This document shows, in pieces, positions 1,599-33,589 of a stretch of 37,770 nt of DNA. This stretch comes from a virus: UHGV virus genome UHGV-1359486; one strand, written 5' to 3'. The notes below the pieces were generated by a model that did no database searches, was not told where the DNA came from, and saw only the letters and a list, made by a program, of their open reading frames with translations. How positions within the stretch are numbered: position 1 is the stretch's first letter; each line of letters starts with the position of its first letter. A program made the translations under genes and the position numbers.

Positions 1599-2663
1599 AT
1601 GATAACAAAAGAACAGAAAATTGACTGCATAAATTATGCAAAAGCAATAGGAATAATTGCGGTTGTTATTGGTCATTATAAAAATGACATGTTCGATGTA
1701 TTCAAACCTTATATGTATCATATGCCTTTATTTTTCTTTATTGGTGGCATTTTACATAACGATAAAAGAAGCATTACAAATAGCATTCTAACCACCATAA
1801 AAAAACATCATTTTTATATAGTGGTTAATTATATACTAATTGGGATATTTATAATTGCAGTAAATAACTCATTTGGAACGTCATTGAGAAACCCATTTGA
1901 TGAATCAATCATTGGAACGATAAAGTATGCGGTGACATGGAATTTCCATTCCAATACGCTGTTTTTGGTTGCATGGTTTTTGTTTGCATACTCTTTAATA
2001 TTTGTTTTATTTTCAGTGATGATTAACAAAATAACAAAAGGTAAATTACCTATATTTCTAATTTCAATTTTTCTTGGTGTTATTGGTTACTACGTGGCGG
2101 TTGAGATGTATGCTAAAAGTGAATTGTTTTATCTTAACTTATTAAGTCAGGTTTTGGTTGGGTCAATGTTTTATGGCATAGGAGTATCAATAAAGGATAG
2201 GTTTTTTTCATTGCTCAACCCATTCGCCTTTGTTGTTATATTAATGGCAATACTGACATTGGTTAAACTTGATTATATAGGAACGATAGGAATGTCGTGG
2301 AGTAATTACAATAAAGGGTTGTTTAACCTATTGTTTACACCAGTGGCATGTATTTATTGTGTATTTTTTGTTTCTTACTCATTATCAAAATCAATCGAAT
2401 TCAAGACACTATTGCTCATCGGAATGAATACAAAATCAATAATGTCATATCACTTAGCGGCATTTGTTATATTAGATATATTTTTCAGTTACATTGGGAA
2501 GTATGAAATATCTAACATAAGCGCATTGAATCATTTCAATACATACAAGGTATGGGTTATTTACGTTTTATTTTCAATATTCGCCTCAATCTATTGCGAG
2601 AAGATATTTATACATCTGAAAGATAAGTCGCTGCTAATCGCAAAAAGAAAACTATTGGATTAA
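1599..2663 (+). CDS. Acyltransferase family 3 integral membrane protein (O-antigen acetyltransferase-like; probable lysogenic conversion gene)
   Basis: 354 aa, about 10 predicted TM helices, N-terminal motif INYAKAIGIIAVVIGHY typical of acyltransferase_3; very AT-rich; same position as oac in Sf6-type phages. Confidence 0.6.
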   Translation: MITKEQKIDCINYAKAIGIIAVVIGHYKNDMFDVFKPYMYHMPLFFFIGGILHNDKRSITNSILTTIKKHHFYIVVNYILIGIFIIAVNNSFGTSLRNPFDESIIGTIKYAVTWNFHSNTLFLVAWFLFAYSLIFVLFSVMINKITKGKLPIFLISIFLGVIGYYVAVEMYAKSELFYLNLLSQVLVGSMFYGIGVSIKDRFFSLLNPFAFVVILMAILTLVKLDYIGTIGMSWSNYNKGLFNLLFTPVACIYCVFFVSYSLSKSIEFKTLLLIGMNTKSIMSYHLAAFVILDIFFSYIGKYEISNISALNHFNTYKVWVIYVLFSIFASIYCEKIFIHLKDKSLLIAKRKLLD

Positions 2664-2684
2664 GGGGCTGACGCCCCTTTTTCT
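2663..2684 (+). terminator. Rho-independent terminator between convergent acyltransferase and tailspike genes
   Basis: GGGGC-TGAC-GCCCC hairpin followed by TTTTT. Confidence 0.5.
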
Positions 2685-2689
2685 TTAAA

Positions 2690-4621
2690 TTAGATGCATA
2701 TAATTTCAATAAAAAACATCATTCCTGATGTTAATTCATTTGGTTTTACTTTATTACCACTTGTATCAATTAAGTTAAAGTAAACCTCTCCTGACCCAGC
2801 TGATGAGTTGTTGTAAAATGGAGCCAGTGAAATTCCGTTTGCGTTGTTGCAACTGGTACACATCACATATGGGCGTTGATACTTAGTGTATCCAGGCATA
2901 AATTTGACCTTAAAGGCGTATGGATCGCCAGGAACGCTTTCTGCAGAATAAACTCCTGACGCAATATAGAATGAATTATCTACAACGATACCTGACCCGC
3001 CCTGACTAACAAGGCACCCAATTCTCCTGTTTAGTGAGGCGACACTTCCCTCTGACTTGCGCCACTGGTATGAGTTATTTCTTGAAATGACTGGTGTCGC
3101 CATATTTACATATTTAAGTGGTATGTTTCCGCTAATATCATTATCGCCAGCATCAACCCCTTTTATTGTTATTATATTATCTTGCTTCTCAGGATATCCG
3201 GCATAGTCCCAACAGAAAAAATCAATTCTATTTTGCCCTGCACCATCAATAAATAGAGAGCTAACGGCATCACCTCCCCACTGCTGTACATAGTCACATT
3301 GAATTTCAGCTATTTGTGTGTTGTATGGATATGCATCCGTAGTTATAGGGACGCACTTGATGGTTATGCCATGCAAAGCCCCCTCAACCCTTATGTTTCT
3401 AAAAATACATGACGTTATCCATGATCCACCATCTGAACCCGCTGTGCCTTCCGCTGCAACATCCTCCTTTTTAGGCTGCACGGCGAGTACCTGTAATGCA
3501 TACTCACCAAACCCTAAAGTCAGGTCAGTGAACTTCCCCCAACAAATGCTATTCCATCTGCGGCGGTCGTCAACATACTGGCCTCCGTCCTTGCTTAAAT
3601 CAGCACGAAGCATGAGTGAAGTACCGGTCTTGTCTTTCGAGCAACCAACCAGGTTAAGGTTACTGATCGTTATGTTGCGGAGGTTATTTTTACCGATAAC
3701 CAATGCAACAGAATGATTCCATTCTGTTAGGTCACTATCGACGGCTATTCTCGCCTTATTACCATGCCCTTCTGTGCTGAATTCAATATTGTCATTTTCA
3801 AACACAAACCAATCGTTACGTAGTGAGCGGTTAATTAACTGAGCTCCGCCAGAAAAACGGAAGTTTTTCTTAACCTTGACCTGGCTGTTGCAATCAAATG
3901 ACATTTTAGGGATCAGGATGGTGTTTACTGCTGCAATTTCCTGAAGGCCACCCAGAATACTTCCGATATCAGTATTCTCCTGAGCGCCAACAGAAAGGAT
4001 ATCAGCGCCGTTTGTAACATCCAATGTTGCAGTCAGTCCGTTATCCAGGATGACGTTTACCAGCGTGTCTGGCTGATTATTTGTGATTGCATAAATGCCC
4101 TCACCACCATCACCAGGAGAGTAATATCCGCGAGTTTTGACCGTAGCCCCAAGTGGAAGTGATGTATCCGCTACCATTGCAGCGACATTATCGAAGACGC
4201 GGAGATAGTTTTCAGTCAGGCCACCTATCATTTTATATCCATCGTCCCCGCCTAACTCCCCCCTTATCCTTACATCAAATTGATCAGGGTCATACTTCAA
4301 AACATTAGGATAATAGAACTGCTGAGCTCCGTATGAATCATACACCGCCATAGAATGGCCTTGTATGGTAACGAACTTCGCAATCTGCCCGTTATATACC
4401 GGATAGCCAGCTTGGTTAATAATCAGAGGCTGAGTTGCGGGAATGTGCGTTCCATCTTCGTTTTCAAGATACACCTGAATTTGGTTTTCCGGTATGGTGG
4501 GATCGGTGTCAATTTTCCCGATGAAGATTTTCCCGTTACTCGCCGCCTGGAATTTGCGTGCAAGCGTGAACAACTGCGAAGGCATGCTCACTACAACATT
4601 AGGAATAATTTGTTCTGACAT
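2690..4621 (-). CDS. Tailspike protein (P22 gp9-type N-terminal head-binding domain + divergent beta-helix receptor-binding domain)
   Basis: N-terminus [13 protein letters not shown]...[12 protein letters not shown]...[10 protein letters not shown] matches P22-family tailspike head-binding domain; ATG at 4619-4621 with GGAG 6 nt upstream (track ORF starts at TTG 4633). Confidence 0.85.
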
Positions 4622-4689
4622 TGCTTTCTCCAAGCGTGAGTAGTCGCATCAGACTATGATGTGATTTTTTAATTTAATAGGAGTGTGAT

Positions 4690-4788
4690 ATGAACAATAA
4701 CAACTACGATGCAGACGAATTTGCGTCACTAATAATCAAGGTTGCTATTGCTTTTGCGGTAATAACATTTTTAATTAAATATATTTAG
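4690..4788 (+). CDS. Micro-ORF, 32-aa hydrophobic peptide (MNNNNYDADEFASLIIKVAIAFAVITFLIKYI)
   Basis: AGGAG 6 nt upstream of ATG; in the 172-bp gap between gp16 and tailspike, antisense to late genes. Confidence 0.3.
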   Translation: MNNNNYDADEFASLIIKVAIAFAVITFLIKYI

Positions 4789-4805
4789 CCATCCGTGGCT
4801 CATGT

Positions 4806-6917
4806 TCACTTGGACTTTTCTCCCTGCATCACTGCAGTGGTGGCCTGTGATATCTGAGAGATAAGGCGATCATATGCTGTGCTACCCTTTGGGGTGTTCG
4901 CCAACCTAAGCATCATGTTACGTATCGGCTTGCTTTCATATACTCTAGCAAGCCCCCCATAAGTGGCAAACGCGGCAGTTAAAGCACCGCCATTCCCCAG
5001 CACGTCAGCTGCCACTCCCGTCGGTATACCAACCTGCAAAAGCTCCTGCCCGGTAGGGGTAACCGTGCCAGCTCTGGATGCCCTTTGTGTCTGCTCAAGG
5101 TATTTTTTCAGCCCATTCAGATATTGCTTCTCGTTACCTTTAAACAGGATACCTGTCTGCGCTGAAAGCCGGTTTATTTCATTCAGGAACTTCTCCGGAC
5201 TGCCGCCTGATTTCTCATAGGCTTTGCCGATAACAGACGCTCTTGCCGCATTCCTTCCGCGGCTGTCGAGTGATCTGTATAGTTGCTGAACCTCACTTTT
5301 CTTATTACTGAAAAGGAGGTTGTTAGCAACTTCCGGCGTGAGTTCGCCTTTCTGCAGAACGGATTTCAGGCGCGTATTATTCACCACCTGAGCCTCATGA
5401 GCGTATGCCGCATTCGCCTGGCGATAACGATCTGCCACTCTGGCACCGAGGTTATCAGACACAGACTGATTGATATCTTTTGACATAGCGTCATATACAC
5501 GGTTAACCGCCCCTTGAGACTGAGAAGGCCACACCATGCGGTCACCTTTCACATCCTGTCTGAACTGCGTTCTCAGGTCTCTCATCAGGCTAAAATCAGC
5601 GCCTTTCACCAACTCATCACGATAAGTCTGTAATTTATTGATGGTTTGAGTGTCAGCCGCGCCGCCAAGCCGCGCCAGTCGACTCATTTCATTATCGATA
5701 GCTGTGATGGCTTGTGTCGGGTTTATGGTGCCTACCGACTGCATTGCGGAGTCTACTTCAGACATGCGCTTACCTGCCGCCTGTTTAACCTTGCTGGTCT
5801 GTCTCTGAAGGCTCTGAACCACTTCATCAGGTGATGGAGCGGCAAAGCTTTCTGAGTATTCCTGAATCAGTTTGCTCCTTGCTTCCTGCTGATTTCTGCG
5901 TAGTGAGCCAGTGCCGGTAACGGGTATTTTCTCAGCCAGTGCCTGAGCTGAACGACCAGAGAATGTGCCTGGCTGAACAGCATCAGTGGTCATCAGCGGT
6001 GCGTTATTAGCATCGGCAAACTTAACTGCCTCTGCCGCCTCCGGTGACATCTTTCCTTTTATTGCCCGAGCCGCAGCGCCGACAATATTTTCAAATGCCT
6101 TACCGCCGGTGCCTAGAACACCAGATAATCCAACCTGAAGCGGGTCAATATCAGTTCCGCCCATGTAACTTGTGGTGCCCTGAATTAACGCATCCGTACC
6201 GGCTGCGCGAAGACCAGCGCTGACCAATCCGCCTGCACGTCCAGCCGGTGTATATGATGCTGCCAGAGCCGCGCCAGATGCCACATCCTCGGGAGATAGG
6301 CCGGGTTTGTTAAGGGAATACCTTCTTTCAGGTAAAGAAACTATTTTTTCACCATTCTCCCCATCAATCACCACTCCGCCGCTTTCTTTTGCCACCCTTT
6401 CTGCCATTTCTGCGAGCTCTGGTATCCATCCCATTTCAACAACTCGTTTATTCGCAGGCAGGGTAACAATAGCGTTTCCTTTCACATCATAGGAAATTGT
6501 CGCCCCCATGTTTTTCAGCATGATTTCCTGATCCTGCTGATTACCCATCATCTGAGCCCAGGCAACTTTGGCGGCATCTTTTGTCATGGACTTCATTTCT
6601 GGCGCATCAGATATTGATGGAAGGTTTTCAATTTCTGGTGTCATGCGGCTCTCGCCGGTAACCATGTCTTTCACATTAGCCCAAAATCCTTCCGGCTGCT
6701 GCGCTTCCGGCTGCTGCACCGGAGCAGGCTGCTGCTCTTGCTGCACTGTCTCAACCGGATATGCAGTGTAAAACTGCTGCCTTGCCTCATTCACAGCTTC
6801 ACCCGCCCGCGGGGCAACAACGTCATTAAAGTATTGCTCCTGCGCTTCAGCTCTTTGCTGAGGTGAAAGAGCTTGATATTGCTGAGAGGCAATAACGTCT
6901 TTCCATGCCTTAGCCAT
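4806..6917 (-). CDS. Ejection (internal virion) protein, P22 gp16-like
   Basis: 703 aa; last of the 7-20-16 ejection-protein trio by synteny; start overlaps gp20 stop by 1 nt. Confidence 0.75.
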   Translation of the reverse strand: MAKAWKDVIASQQYQALSPQQRAEAQEQYFNDVVAPRAGEAVNEARQQFYTAYPVETVQQEQQPAPVQQPEAQQPEGFWANVKDMVTGESRMTPEIENLPSISDAPEMKSMTKDAAKVAWAQMMGNQQDQEIMLKNMGATISYDVKGNAIVTLPANKRVVEMGWIPELAEMAERVAKESGGVVIDGENGEKIVSLPERRYSLNKPGLSPEDVASGAALAASYTPAGRAGGLVSAGLRAAGTDALIQGTTSYMGGTDIDPLQVGLSGVLGTGGKAFENIVGAAARAIKGKMSPEAAEAVKFADANNAPLMTTDAVQPGTFSGRSAQALAEKIPVTGTGSLRRNQQEARSKLIQEYSESFAAPSPDEVVQSLQRQTSKVKQAAGKRMSEVDSAMQSVGTINPTQAITAIDNEMSRLARLGGAADTQTINKLQTYRDELVKGADFSLMRDLRTQFRQDVKGDRMVWPSQSQGAVNRVYDAMSKDINQSVSDNLGARVADRYRQANAAYAHEAQVVNNTRLKSVLQKGELTPEVANNLLFSNKKSEVQQLYRSLDSRGRNAARASVIGKAYEKSGGSPEKFLNEINRLSAQTGILFKGNEKQYLNGLKKYLEQTQRASRAGTVTPTGQELLQVGIPTGVAADVLGNGGALTAAFATYGGLARVYESKPIRNMMLRLANTPKGSTAYDRLISQISQATTAVMQGEKSK

Positions 6918-8305
6918 TAATCACCCCATAATGATGAATATCCGGATTGCTGCTGAGCCGGTTGCTGTTTTGATGACGGCTTACTACCACCGACATCCGC
7001 GTTGTATTGCTGGTTATAGTTGTTGGTGTATTCCTGAATTTCCATCAGAGACTGCTTCATGGCATCCGGGCTTGAGTAGTCCATCTGCGGCATACCCTGG
7101 AAATACATTTTTGCCTCTGCCACGGTGTTAATACCACTCGCCCCCATATCGCGAGCGGCCGCAATACCCTGGTTCTGCATTCTCCCCTGTACGCGCTGGG
7201 CGGCGGTATAAAACTGACGCTGTTCTTTGCCGTTCCACCGGCTGCGGTAATCAGCACCCACCGCCGGAGCACCAACACCGCCGGAAACGCCCGTCATGAA
7301 GTCCAGTTGTTCAGGATCAGCATTGAGAATGGCATCGATGTCTTTCTTCATGGCATAGTTGGTTGCACTCGCTGATGAGCTTGCAGGAGCTGCTATCGAG
7401 TTCGCTGGCACTCGCACGGTGTTGCCGTTATTGTCTATCCCTTCGTAATATGCGTTGGCTCCGGATCCGTGAACCTTGCCAACAATCCCGACAGTGCGGC
7501 CATCAGAGAGCTGAACAGTTCGCTCCCCCTCTCCGCCACCGGAAGACATTGACCGCTGCATAGCCATATCCTGTCCGCGGCGGGTAGTTGATGCTGATAT
7601 ATCCTGACCACGTCTCGCTGTTGCCGCGCTGATATCCTGACCACGGCGGGTGGTTTCGGCAGAAAGCCGGTTACCTTCTGCGGTAATGTCCTGCCCTCGC
7701 ATGGTTACTTTGCGATTCTCTTTATCGCCAATAACATCAAAGTATTTTTCAGGAGTGAGCGCACTCATGCCGATGGTGTCAGCCAACTCAACTGCACCTT
7801 TCGGGTCAGCCTTAGCCAGGCGCTGCGCTTCTTTCGGGTCAATACCGAGACGCATCAGTTCAGCCGCGTTTTTGGCAACAAACTGATCACCTGTTCCGGC
7901 ATTAACTGCCATGCGAAAGTTTGCGGCCACATTACCGAGTGATTCGCGGGTGTCAGCGGAGATTCCTTCCATGCCTTTCCCGATCTGCTCATTCATTTCG
8001 GGATACTCAGCAAAGAGTTGGCGCATAGATGCAGTATCACCGGCAGCGCGGGCTGTTCCATATTTCTGGAAAAACTCCTGCTGTCTCTGTGCCTGCTGGT
8101 CAGCCTGGTACATTTGAGCGACCCCATACAGTCCCTGCAATCCCTGCAATACAGGGTTATTGGCACCTGAACTCTGAATATCATTATTTTCCCGGATGAG
8201 AGACAGTGCTGTGTTTGCGTCAGTTGCGCGGGGCGCGTTGCTATTCACCCCGCCAATTCCGCCGAGAAGACTTCCGGCAATGCCGCCCTGATTCCATGTT
8301 GCCAT
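6917..8305 (-). CDS. Ejection protein, P22 gp20-like
   Basis: 462 aa, Gly/Ala/Gln-rich with internal RRGQDIS repeats; synteny. Confidence 0.75.
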   Translation of the reverse strand: MATWNQGGIAGSLLGGIGGVNSNAPRATDANTALSLIRENNDIQSSGANNPVLQGLQGLYGVAQMYQADQQAQRQQEFFQKYGTARAAGDTASMRQLFAEYPEMNEQIGKGMEGISADTRESLGNVAANFRMAVNAGTGDQFVAKNAAELMRLGIDPKEAQRLAKADPKGAVELADTIGMSALTPEKYFDVIGDKENRKVTMRGQDITAEGNRLSAETTRRGQDISAATARRGQDISASTTRRGQDMAMQRSMSSGGGEGERTVQLSDGRTVGIVGKVHGSGANAYYEGIDNNGNTVRVPANSIAAPASSSASATNYAMKKDIDAILNADPEQLDFMTGVSGGVGAPAVGADYRSRWNGKEQRQFYTAAQRVQGRMQNQGIAAARDMGASGINTVAEAKMYFQGMPQMDYSSPDAMKQSLMEIQEYTNNYNQQYNADVGGSKPSSKQQPAQQQSGYSSLWGD

Positions 8306-8314
8306 AACTCCCCC

Positions 8315-9007
8315 TTAAAACAGACTGCCGAGTAACCCAAGGCCGGCACCAATACCGGCACCCCACGGAGTCGAAGCGCCAATAGCGCTAGCAATACCGC
8401 CGCCCAACATAGCCCCTGATGCACCTCCGCTGATTGCCTGCTGGAAACCAGACGGGCGATTAGCATTCGCTGCCGCCAGTGCTGCCTGCTGCTGATAAAG
8501 AGAGCCCATATTGTTGGCGTAGTTCTGCCCGGCGTTGGCCTGCCCCTGTAATGCACCGAGGCCGATATTTGCCAGATTCTGAGCGCTGTTCATCTGATCA
8601 CCAAGCCATGACTGACCGAGAGTAGGGGCAATTGCTGCGAGTTGGTTCGCAGTTGCTGTAGACCCAAGCCCACCCGTCGCTTCAGCTGCATTCAGAGCCT
8701 GATAGCGAGACTGGTCAGCCTGCCTCTTGTACATGTCTGAGCCATAGAAACCCTGCAGCGCCTTATCCTGACCTTCAAGTGTTGACAACCCCTGCATCTG
8801 AGTAATGTACTGCTGTGCTAATGGCGTGAATGGAGCAAGGTTTGTCATAATCCGGTTGAATTGAGCGTCCTGCAAATCGGCGGAATGCCTCATTGCATCA
8901 GCCTGAGCGCCTGCGCCATTATCGCCGCCACCCTTACCGCCTTTTTCAGGGAACAGAGGTTCTTCACCGGCAATCTTTCGTGCCAGTTTAAAAATATATC
9001 CGGACAT
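8315..9007 (-). CDS. Ejection protein, P22 gp7-like
   Basis: 230 aa with Gly/Ala-rich C-terminus; synteny and size match P22 gp7. Confidence 0.75.
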   Translation of the reverse strand: MSGYIFKLARKIAGEEPLFPEKGGKGGGDNGAGAQADAMRHSADLQDAQFNRIMTNLAPFTPLAQQYITQMQGLSTLEGQDKALQGFYGSDMYKRQADQSRYQALNAAEATGGLGSTATANQLAAIAPTLGQSWLGDQMNSAQNLANIGLGALQGQANAGQNYANNMGSLYQQQAALAAANANRPSGFQQAISGGASGAMLGGGIASAIGASTPWGAGIGAGLGLLGSLF

Positions 9008-32787: not shown

Positions 32788-33589
32788 CCCACCAATCGCA
32801 CAGGCGGACCTGCAAAAAGCACAAGGGACCGCGGTTAAAGAAAAAACAAAAGACCAGCAGCTAATCCAGTTCATAAACCAGCCAGGCATGAAAGCTCAAC
32901 TAGCAGCCGCCCTGCCGAGGCATATAACACCGGACCGCATGATCAGGATTGTCACCACCGAGATACGGAAAACTCCATCACTGGCAACCTGTGACATGCA
33001 AAGCTTTATCGGCGCTGTTGTTCAGTGCTCGCAACTTGGCCTTGAGCCAGGTAACGCATTGGGCCACGCCTACCTCCTTCCGTTCGGCAATGGTAAAGCG
33101 GCATCAGGGCAATCAAATATTCAGTTAATTATCGGATATCGCGGCATGATCGACCTCGCCCGCCGATCCGGTCAAATTATCAGTATATCGGCCCGCACTG
33201 TGCGCGAAGGTGACAGTTTTCATTTTGAATATGGCTTAAACGAGGACCTTACACACGTACCCGGCGAAAATGACTCGGGCCCAATCACCCACGTTTATGC
33301 AGTGGCCCGCCTGAAAGAAGGTGGTGTTCAGTTTGAGGTTATGTCTTTCTCTCAGATTGAGAAGGTCCGCGATTCAAGCAAGGCCGGTAAAAATGGTCCA
33401 TGGGTATCTCACTGGGAAGAAATGGCGAAAAAGACCGTCATCCGCCGCCTGTTCAAATATCTGCCGGTATCTATCGAGATGCAGAGGGCCGTCATTCTGG
33501 ATGAAAAAGCAGAGGCCAACGTGGACCAGGAGCATGCATCTATTTTTGAAGGTGAGTACGAAACTGTATCGCCGGAATCCGCGGGGTAA
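32780..33589 (+). CDS. recT: RecT-family single-strand annealing protein
   Basis: 269 aa; LLPFG, IGYRGMIDLARRSG motifs; coupled downstream of the nuclease. Confidence 0.85.
   Translation: MSNPPIAQADLQKAQGTAVKEKTKDQQLIQFINQPGMKAQLAAALPRHITPDRMIRIVTTEIRKTPSLATCDMQSFIGAVVQCSQLGLEPGNALGHAYLLPFGNGKAASGQSNIQLIIGYRGMIDLARRSGQIISISARTVREGDSFHFEYGLNEDLTHVPGENDSGPITHVYAVARLKEGGVQFEVMSFSQIEKVRDSSKAGKNGPWVSHWEEMAKKTVIRRLFKYLPVSIEMQRAVILDEKAEANVDQEHASIFEGEYETVSPESAG

Follow-up and report, generated by a model that had tools for sequence, protein, structure and literature searches.

The virus genome UHGV-1359486 (37,770 nt; hereafter the window, meaning this whole stretch of DNA) is that of a P22-like (Lederbergvirus-type) temperate phage with its late genes on the minus strand. 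Its counterparts of P22 gene 16 and gene 9 flank a slot, home to the immI/sieA region in P22, in which a plus-strand open reading frame (ORF) of 32 amino acids (aa) runs antisense to the late operon. With a probability of roughly 0.6, and leaving any exclusion function aside, we read this ORF as a real gene that is translated into an inner-membrane peptide of 32 residues with a single membrane pass, and as the lone accessory, moron-type gene of the slot. That the ORF is a genuine small-protein gene under selection appears very likely. The best-supported account is that in relatives a lysogen-expressed mnt-side unit ends with the peptide gene as its last cistron, and that here it has been kept alone with a strong ribosome-binding site (RBS).

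The peptide gene (MNNNNYDADEFASLIIKVAIAFAVITFLIKYI) extends from an ATG to a TAG on the plus strand (4690–4788 including the stop, TAG at 4786–4788), and a Shine-Dalgarno sequence AGGAG could be read from the sequence at 4679–4683 on the same strand, 6 nt before the ATG. No longer reading frame is available to the peptide, because two in-frame stops (TAA TAG) lie immediately 5′ of the ORF. When the 184-bp intergenic gap was shuffled, 16% of the shuffles contained an ORF of at least 32 aa running from ATG to stop, and in 0.7% such an ORF came with a Shine-Dalgarno pentamer. Because 16% of shuffles yield such an ORF, its mere presence is weak evidence, and it is the comparative data that carry the case. 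The ORF is AT-rich, as is the acyltransferase gene of the same genome, its GC (guanine plus cytosine) content being 29.3% as compared with 51% for gp16, 43% for the tailspike gene and 48% for the whole window.

Residues 11–29 (FASLIIKVAIAFAVITFLI) form the best 19-residue window of the product (mean Kyte-Doolittle hydropathy of 2.56) and correspond to a predicted transmembrane (TM) segment, while an AlphaFold2 model built on the family alignment revealed one helix spanning residues 4–31 (mean predicted local distance difference test score, pLDDT, of 86). The peptide is accordingly modelled as a single-pass membrane helix with a polar N-terminal end and a C-terminal TM segment. Positions that are invariant in the family include E10, A19-I-A21, T26, I29 and K30, and position 17, which sits within the hydrophobic stretch, is always Lys or Arg.

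A preliminary description of this DNA had reported a plus-strand 32-aa ORF with an AGGAG RBS, antisense to the late genes and hydrophobic in its C-terminal half, within a P22 immI/sieA slot devoid of mnt, arc, ant and sieA. The ORF proved exact to the nucleotide, the hydropathy profile bears out the hydrophobic half, and the ORF is indeed the only gene-like object of the slot, as no further ORF and no mnt, arc, ant or sar were found within 4622–4805. The interval itself had to be redrawn: the 172 bp given (4634–4805) took a TTG at 4633 as the tailspike start, and the account made no mention of a stem-loop at 4642–4666. The true tailspike start is the ATG at 4621, with GGAGAA (4626–4631 in plus-strand coordinates) as RBS 5 nt upstream, and the Pfam head-binding profile starts at residue 4 of the protein translated from this ATG. 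The spacing of 68 nt between the tailspike ATG and the peptide ATG is the same in the gene calls of eight relatives, and a conserved tailspike start motif (CATTGCTTTCTCCAAGCGTGAG) was present in 41 IMG/VR contigs. Because the tailspike starts at ATG 4621 and not at TTG 4633, the intergenic gap spans 4622–4805 and measures 184 bp.

A profile (HMMER) search covering 1.84 billion representative proteins revealed the exact peptide (window peptide E = 2e-18) and a 42-aa Providencia homologue (MSINNMKKEDKKNSDFAADELATFIIRVAIACAIVTLIIKFV). A third match (P0002; 1,644 aa, E = 8e-10) was rejected as spurious, being a repeat protein with a chance match to the motif 'IGNT.Y.A.E.AS'. Subsequent cluster look-ups recovered seven short-form, 14 long-form and two Providencia variants on more than 150 contigs, so that the comparison with related phages at this junction, suggested in the preliminary description, showed the ORF to be conserved. 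The family comprises three length forms, of 32 aa (short), 40–41 aa (long) and 42 aa (Providencia), with the exact 32-aa protein recorded on 53 contigs. The identity of the window peptide amounts to 81% with the long form and 48% with the Providencia form, and its sequence fits the core (D/E)(E/D)(F/L)A(S/T)(L/F)II(K/R)VAIA(F/C)A(V/I)(I/V)T(F/L)(L/I)IK(Y/F)(I/V)-stop. Substitutions between variants are mostly conservative (I/V, V/I, A/S, V/L, K/R).

The family is restricted to P22-like prophages of Morganella and Providencia, and RefSeq labels its members 'hypothetical protein' (WP_282101112.1 in M. morganii, WP_272688554.1 in Providencia). No match to the peptide was found in Pfam, PHROGs, NCBIfam, PADLOC or PDB sequences (for Pfam, PHROG and NCBIfam, only noise at E ≤ 1). 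When the long and Providencia forms were compared by tblastn with 50,697 phage genomes, that of P22 among them, nothing or Bacillus-phage noise was returned, and P22 itself lacks a homologue. With the junction as a nucleotide query, matches in phages and E. coli genomes were confined to the head-binding region of the tailspike and left the ORF unmatched, and our literature search found no paper that describes the family, which is known so far only as unnamed database hypothetical proteins. Two records stand apart. The exact peptide also occurs under the label Mycobacterium tuberculosis (L012; GCA_900121015.1, FPPU01000035.1; protein SGD85067.1), in an assembly that is probably contaminated or mislabelled, the contig being a typical Morganella-type P22-like prophage region. 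In addition, a 1,017-bp Logan contig (P0007) carries a 55-aa read-through variant, seen once, in which the TAG has become a Tyr codon and Thr26 a Lys; either a sequencing error or a rare disrupted allele may underlie it.

An IMG/VR search with gp16 yielded five loci, including L003 (gp16 98% identical), with an ORF identical to that of the window, and L007 (gp16 83% identical), in which a 41-aa version (MMEKKTSKKIGNTDYAAEEFASLIIKVAIAFAVITFLIKYI) is the last gene of an antisense mnt-lipoprotein-peptide operon. In the latter, mnt has PF11423 and PF03869 domains and the lipoprotein belongs to phrog_6067. In every locus, no other plus-strand gene intervenes between the peptide gene and gp16, and the stop codons of the two are 17 nt apart (at least 30 loci). 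Its upstream context differs from locus to locus: the peptide gene stands alone (window, L003, L010–L017, L040), or is preceded by the lipoprotein gene only, with a TATAAT promoter (L027), by mnt and the lipoprotein gene (L007, L024–L039), by a gene for a 115-aa Arc-family protein (L018–L019, L023), or by a complete immI in which mnt, two further genes and the peptide gene face arc-ant (L020–L022). Where a gene precedes it in relatives, the peptide gene starts 12–15 nt after that gene. All forms have retained a Shine-Dalgarno sequence (AGGAG or AGGTG for the short, AAGGCGG for the long and GAGGTGA for the Providencia form), although the sequences further upstream are unrelated. Because the short form is carried by prophages with at least six tailspike lengths and differing O-antigen conversion genes, it must be old and widespread.

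Some of these operons are of note in themselves. Many Morganella prophages (L007 at 7247–8057; L024–L039) carry mnt, with Arc and Repressor_Mnt domains, and no arc or ant. There mnt heads an operon that continues with the genes for the 159-aa lipoprotein (phrog_6067) and the peptide, and Mnt thus has no antirepressor to control. Upstream of mnt, these prophages have a promoter-like site, TTGTGA-17-TATGAT, together with a CACG..CGTG palindrome. In the Providencia immI regions (L020 at 4139–4795; L021 at 2408–3085), a 218–225-aa coiled-coil protein (phrog_5820) with one C-terminal TM segment and a Gln/Pro-rich tail is encoded directly upstream of the peptide gene. Its assignment as a type C SieA was rejected, as it lacks the SieA motif and combines a coiled coil with one TM segment.

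Selection on the reading frame was examined with attention to how the loci had been retrieved. Loci fetched by exact protein identity are biased toward synonymous changes within a form and are unusable for non-synonymous counts, so that unbiased comparisons were confined to L003, L007 and L040 (retrieved via gp16) and to comparisons between forms. The peptide of L040 (MNNKEYDADEFASLIIKVAIAFAVMTFLIKHI) is an M. morganii copy that was retrieved through gp16, independently of the peptide. The window and L040 differ at 14 of 96 nucleotide positions, with nine synonymous and five non-synonymous changes (synonymous divergence dS of 0.62, non-synonymous divergence dN of 0.074, dN/dS of 0.12; binomial p = 5e-4), and 12 of the 14 differences fall in third codon positions. 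Even in the nine N-terminal codons that are specific to the short form, codon changes are synonymous in six cases and non-synonymous in two. A comparison of the Morganella with the Providencia form showed saturation at synonymous sites (proportion of synonymous differences, pS, of 0.8), as against a proportion of non-synonymous differences (pN) of 0.21. Because of the low dN/dS, the concentration of changes in third positions and the Shine-Dalgarno sequence kept in all forms, we conclude that the frame, as judged from these sequence comparisons, is translated and under purifying selection, its stand-alone form included. A gp16-based scan with one genome per species provided three loci only, too few for a broad unbiased dN/dS estimate. 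The comparison with the long form also revealed a mosaic boundary inside the peptide gene (window 4720–4860 versus L007 7035–7180): short-form and long-form phages share ~96% identity over the last 75 nt of the ORF and over the gp16 3′ end, whereas identity falls to ~57% in the 5′ codons and the gp16 proteins as a whole are 83% identical.

To what extent the slot varies was derived from a survey in which IMG/VR was scanned with the tailspike start motif, independently of slot content, and which provided 35 evaluable slots of 112 to 2,864 bp. Ten of these are empty (112–113 bp) and contain hairpin 2 (the stem-loop discussed below) and a bidirectional terminator; specifically, in L041, L046, L050, L053 and others gp16 is separated from the tailspike gene by an intrinsic terminator (AAAAAAACCGCAATTAAGCGGTG..TTTTT) that is strong and bidirectional, reminiscent of the one annotated ahead of gene 9 in P22. 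In the late direction, the window lacks a terminator of this kind. Slots of 455–456 bp (five of the 35; L047, L051, L054, L071 and L082) hold a gene in late orientation for a 98-aa membrane protein with two or three hydrophobic segments, and most of the remaining slots begin with mnt. The gp16-adjacent gene nearly always encodes an envelope protein, be it a SieA homologue, a lipoprotein (phrog_6067) or a single-TM protein of 76, 84, 124 or 312–313 aa; in L067 this position is taken by a 195-aa SieA homologue with the motif FNRYPGEAKGFNK. The possibility that the peptide is a detached C-terminal anchor of larger, tail-anchored slot proteins (124 aa in L004, 313 aa in L006) was rejected, since BLASTP produced no alignment.

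These data identify the gene 16 / gene 9 slot as a hypervariable insertion site in this phage group. In the P22-like phages of Morganellaceae, this junction emerges as a hot spot of accessory genes that act on the envelope. The earlier wording of a 'collapsed' slot does not follow from such a length range, with ten of 35 slots empty. The window can be read either way: next to the empty slots its slot looks like an addition, and next to relatives with mnt-lipoprotein-peptide or a full immI it looks like a minimal version.

The gap contains two hairpins. Hairpin 2 (4642–4672, plus strand, from the terminator scan) consists of a 10-bp stem-loop (4642–4666) followed by TTTTTT and is terminator-like on the plus strand; on the minus strand, it lies directly 5′ of the tailspike RBS. 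Owing to G-U pairs, its plus-strand RNA is the more stable of the two (–11.5 kcal/mol, z = –4.5, against –5.2 kcal/mol for the minus-strand RNA). Among 45 distinct sequences, a stem-loop is found at this position in every slot type without mnt, with compensatory differences (CACCAG/CTGGTG versus CATCA/TGATG), and the equivalents in L004, L006, L018–L021, L027, L041 and L046–L082 have their T-rich tract on the strand antisense to the tailspike gene. Slots with mnt show a weaker CACGG..CCGTG inverted repeat instead. Because hairpin 2 is present at a fixed position regardless of what slots without mnt contain, it is an element of the tailspike-proximal slot boundary and does not belong to the peptide gene. 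Hairpin 1 (AGCCATCCGTGGCT; 4787–4800) has a 5-bp stem and sits between the converging stops of the peptide gene and gp16, with a folding energy of –6 kcal/mol (z = –0.5) and no T-run on the plus strand. Variants of its stem go uncompensated in relatives, and the Providencia loci lack this hairpin. It was therefore rejected as a conserved bidirectional terminator and is probably not a functional terminator.

As to promoters, the sole –10-like hexamer that manual reading revealed upstream of the ORF is a TATGAT (4655–4660, plus strand) located inside the descending arm of hairpin 2, with no –35 partner. The same TATGAT is the –10 of the promoter-like TTGTGA-17-TATGAT site upstream of mnt in relatives, and a role as promoter element in the window is speculative. 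Plus-strand read-through from the acyltransferase gene was rejected as a source of transcription because of a strong terminator at 2662–2685. An antisense promoter in the first tailspike codons was likewise rejected, since L040 has TTGTCA-19-TGgTATAAT and the window only AATAAT, so that the element is not conserved. No minus-strand promoter was found within 4622–4805, and an Rfam scan of 4400–5000 produced sub-threshold noise only.

Several of our observations weigh against a real, lone accessory gene, or against the function proposed for it below. In the unbiased sample the peptide occupies only two of 35 slots, so it is dispensable for the phage. Most loci came by exact protein identity, which biases within-form variation toward synonymous changes, and the selection test is based on 14 and 31 substitutions. 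The T-run of the terminator-like hairpin 2 ends only ~12 nt before the Shine-Dalgarno sequence of the peptide gene, and the consensus scan detected no sigma-70 promoter on the plus strand upstream of the stand-alone ORF, although a weak or activator-dependent one may escape such a scan; transcription of the window copy is thus putative. Moreover, the proposed function was derived solely from position and analogy, and the peptide has no sequence or motif similarity to SieA, to HK97 gp15/YebO or to any defence family.

The preliminary description had left it at either a remnant or a genuine small membrane peptide, and of these the comparative data favor the genuine peptide. If the ORF were a silent remnant, it would be the unexpressed leftover 3′ cistron of a decayed mnt-side operon, its frame kept through a recent deletion or through linkage to the gp16 end. 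The missing promoter and the terminator-like hairpin directly upstream would fit this, as would the relatives in which the gene follows mnt and the lipoprotein gene behind a recognisable promoter, and the ~96% identity of the 3′ 75 nt to the long form, in one mosaic block with the gp16 3′ end. However, a start codon of its own and a strong AGGAG/AGGTG Shine-Dalgarno sequence equip the short form, and its spread over different tailspikes and conversion genes marks it as old and widespread. Furthermore, two short-form copies that differ at 14 of 96 positions have both kept the frame, with the low dN/dS extending to the short-form codons, and among all cluster members only one read-through variant was seen, on a 1-kb contig. 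On balance, we deem a remnant unlikely.

Most loci have an envelope protein gene directly before the peptide gene in the same operon, which might in turn indicate that the peptide is an accessory subunit, namely a partner or anchor of that protein (the phrog_6067 lipoprotein or a 219-aa coiled-coil TM protein), orphaned in the window. However, the upstream neighbour varies between a lipoprotein, a coiled-coil TM protein, an Arc-family protein and none, making a dedicated partnership unlikely, and the stand-alone form is still under purifying selection. We therefore give this explanation little credence.

A type I toxin-like peptide, damaging the membrane in the service of prophage addiction or abortive infection and held in check by the late antisense transcript or an unseen small RNA (sRNA), would account for a small, hydrophobic, helical product whose gene is overlapped entirely by the late operon transcript from the other strand. 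The upstream hairpin could then limit expression, and a plus-strand fold pairs CUCC (4628–4631) with the GGAG of the Shine-Dalgarno sequence. Yet this RBS-sequestering fold is not significant (z = –1.7), and in relatives the gene is an ordinary last cistron with a good Shine-Dalgarno sequence, an organisation not seen for strongly toxic peptides. No Rfam sRNA match, antisense promoter in the gap or toxin family match was found, and the polar N-terminus with a C-terminal TM segment is unlike Hok, TisB, Ldr and Ibs. A toxin thus seems quite improbable. The idea that the block is a cis-acting element of the late transcript or DNA (a terminator or processing site) or a recombination boundary, with the ORF being incidental, is barely credible: the region does lie within the late operon, in a slot that when empty contains a strong bidirectional terminator plus hairpin 2, and hairpin 2 is conserved irrespective of slot content, but substitutions follow the plus-strand codon phase with a synonymous excess, the Providencia protein is still 48% identical even though its DNA is saturated at synonymous sites, and no alternative ORF or significant structure was found over 4690–4788.

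Returning to the peptide as a real, lone accessory gene of the slot, its product would be made in lysogens and insert into the inner membrane, where it may act via helix-helix contacts, for which the face formed by Lys/Arg17 and Ala19-x-Ala21-x-Ala23 is a candidate surface. Its most likely role in lysogens would be to interfere with superinfecting phages at the envelope, as is the case for SieA, which P22 encodes at this position. By position and by analogy with SieA and HK97 gp15, superinfection exclusion is thus a possible but doubtful function of the peptide. A more specific and more speculative version is that the 32-residue helix would be a self-sufficient exclusion factor, the smallest known, that jams the gp16/gp20 ejection conduit of incoming P22-like phages or a host partner of this conduit, which would explain why the peptide is the sole piece of the immI/sieA slot that was retained. 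How the gp7/gp20/gp16 conduit of P22 crosses the inner membrane, and how it is blocked by prophage membrane proteins such as SieA, remain open questions (PMC10883804). If expressed and active, the peptide would be a minimal, genetically tractable handle on both; should a phenotype be lacking, it merely joins the other unannotated moron ORFs.

The genes around the slot conform to the P22 order. The tailspike gene (2690–4621, minus strand; the analogue of P22 gene 9) encodes the P22 head-binding domain (PF09008 Head_binding, E = 3e-65, residues 4–114). On the other side, the gene for the gp16-type ejection (DNA transfer) protein of 703 aa (4806–6917, minus strand), homologues of which carry PF26808 (Phage_P22_gp16), converges on the peptide gene with its stop codon at 4806–4808; at higher coordinates lie the genes for gp20 (6917–8305) and gp7 (8315–9007), both on the minus strand. 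The closest deposited phages show only 74–78% identity to the window. The best genome match of gp16 is to Morganella morganii strain Mm1 (92% amino-acid identity), because of which M. morganii is the most likely host.

Besides the peptide gene, the plus strand carries the AT-rich acyltransferase gene, a HolE/theta-like gene and the integrase gene. The DNA polymerase III theta (HolE-like) gene and the 354-aa Acyl_transf_3 gene are located at 1215–1517 and 1599–2663, respectively; the latter (GC content of 29.7%) probably encodes an O-antigen acetylase and is followed by the strong terminator mentioned above, and relatives hold gtrABC or other acyltransferases at its position. Between the integrase and theta-like genes, positions 1072–1100 match the reverse complement of a tRNA 3′ end including CCA (TGGTGCCGGATACCGGATTCGAACTGGTGACC), which is probably the core of the attachment (att) site. 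The order integrase, att, conversion genes, tailspike corresponds to the unintegrated (attP) permutation, and the integrase ORF is seemingly cut at the start of the window. Within the early region, the minus strand has a predicted tRNA-Gly (TCC) gene at 32908–33004.

With regard to known systems, the slot itself is that of P22 immI, in which relatives carry mnt (PF11423 and PF03869) with or without arc and ant, the peptide gene being distal on the mnt side. The window differs from P22 immI by the lack of mnt, arc, ant and sar (no extra ORF, no Rfam match). Like P22 SieA (superinfection exclusion A; Leavitt et al. 2024, PMC10883804), the peptide is a membrane protein encoded by a prophage accessory gene. 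Both genes occupy the interval from gene 16 to gene 9, run antisense to the late operon and converge on gene 16, with stop codons 17 nt apart here and 22 nt between sieA and gene 16 in P22. However, SieA proteins are of 160–210 aa with three to four TM helices (PMC10883804), as opposed to 32 aa and one helix, their cytoplasmic motif FxRYPxEAxxFNK is missing from the peptide, which has no detectable sequence similarity to them, and SieA, which blocks the injection of DNA by P22-like phages, has a mapped promoter and a demonstrated phenotype, neither of which applies to the peptide.

HK97 gp15 is likewise a small inner-membrane protein encoded by AT-rich extra DNA within the late (virion) operon, and the function proposed for the peptide is modelled on the block of genome injection proposed for gp15 (Cumby et al. 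2012, reviewed in PMC3594210). In contrast, gp15 is a member of the YebO family with a promoter and a terminator of its own, whereas the peptide gene is antisense to the late operon with no promoter found, and Pfam, PHROG and NCBIfam searches at E ≤ 1 returned only noise and no YebO similarity for the peptide. Under the definition of a moron (Juhala/Hendrix, restated in PMC3594210), extra DNA of deviating GC content is inserted between adjacent genes with its own promoter and terminator, and is expressed while the prophage is repressed. The window has the extra DNA (a gap of 184 bp, against 112–113 bp in ten related contigs) and the GC contrast with its surroundings (29.3% against 51% for gp16 and 43% for the tailspike gene), while the consensus scan detected no promoter of its own, the lone TATGAT in hairpin 2 being all that is present upstream, and the candidate for its terminator is the weak hairpin 1.

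Type I toxins such as Hok, TisB, Ldr and Ibs share with the peptide a hydrophobic helix of ~30 aa and a possible fully complementary transcript. They differ in that the peptide is operonic in relatives, with a strong Shine-Dalgarno sequence, a polar N-terminus and no family match, and in that late-operon read-through is its sole antisense, in place of a dedicated antisense sRNA with its own promoter. The bacterial small membrane proteins of fewer than 50 aa (AcrZ, MgtS, MgrB, SgrT; Hemm/Storz) use a single TM helix to modulate a larger membrane protein. These are chromosomal and have known partners, whereas the peptide is phage-borne and shows no homology to them, but it matches them in size, in its predicted single TM helix and in being typically missed by annotation. 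The peptide family thereby adds a conserved protein of fewer than 50 aa to a class that annotation pipelines often miss or leave unnamed.

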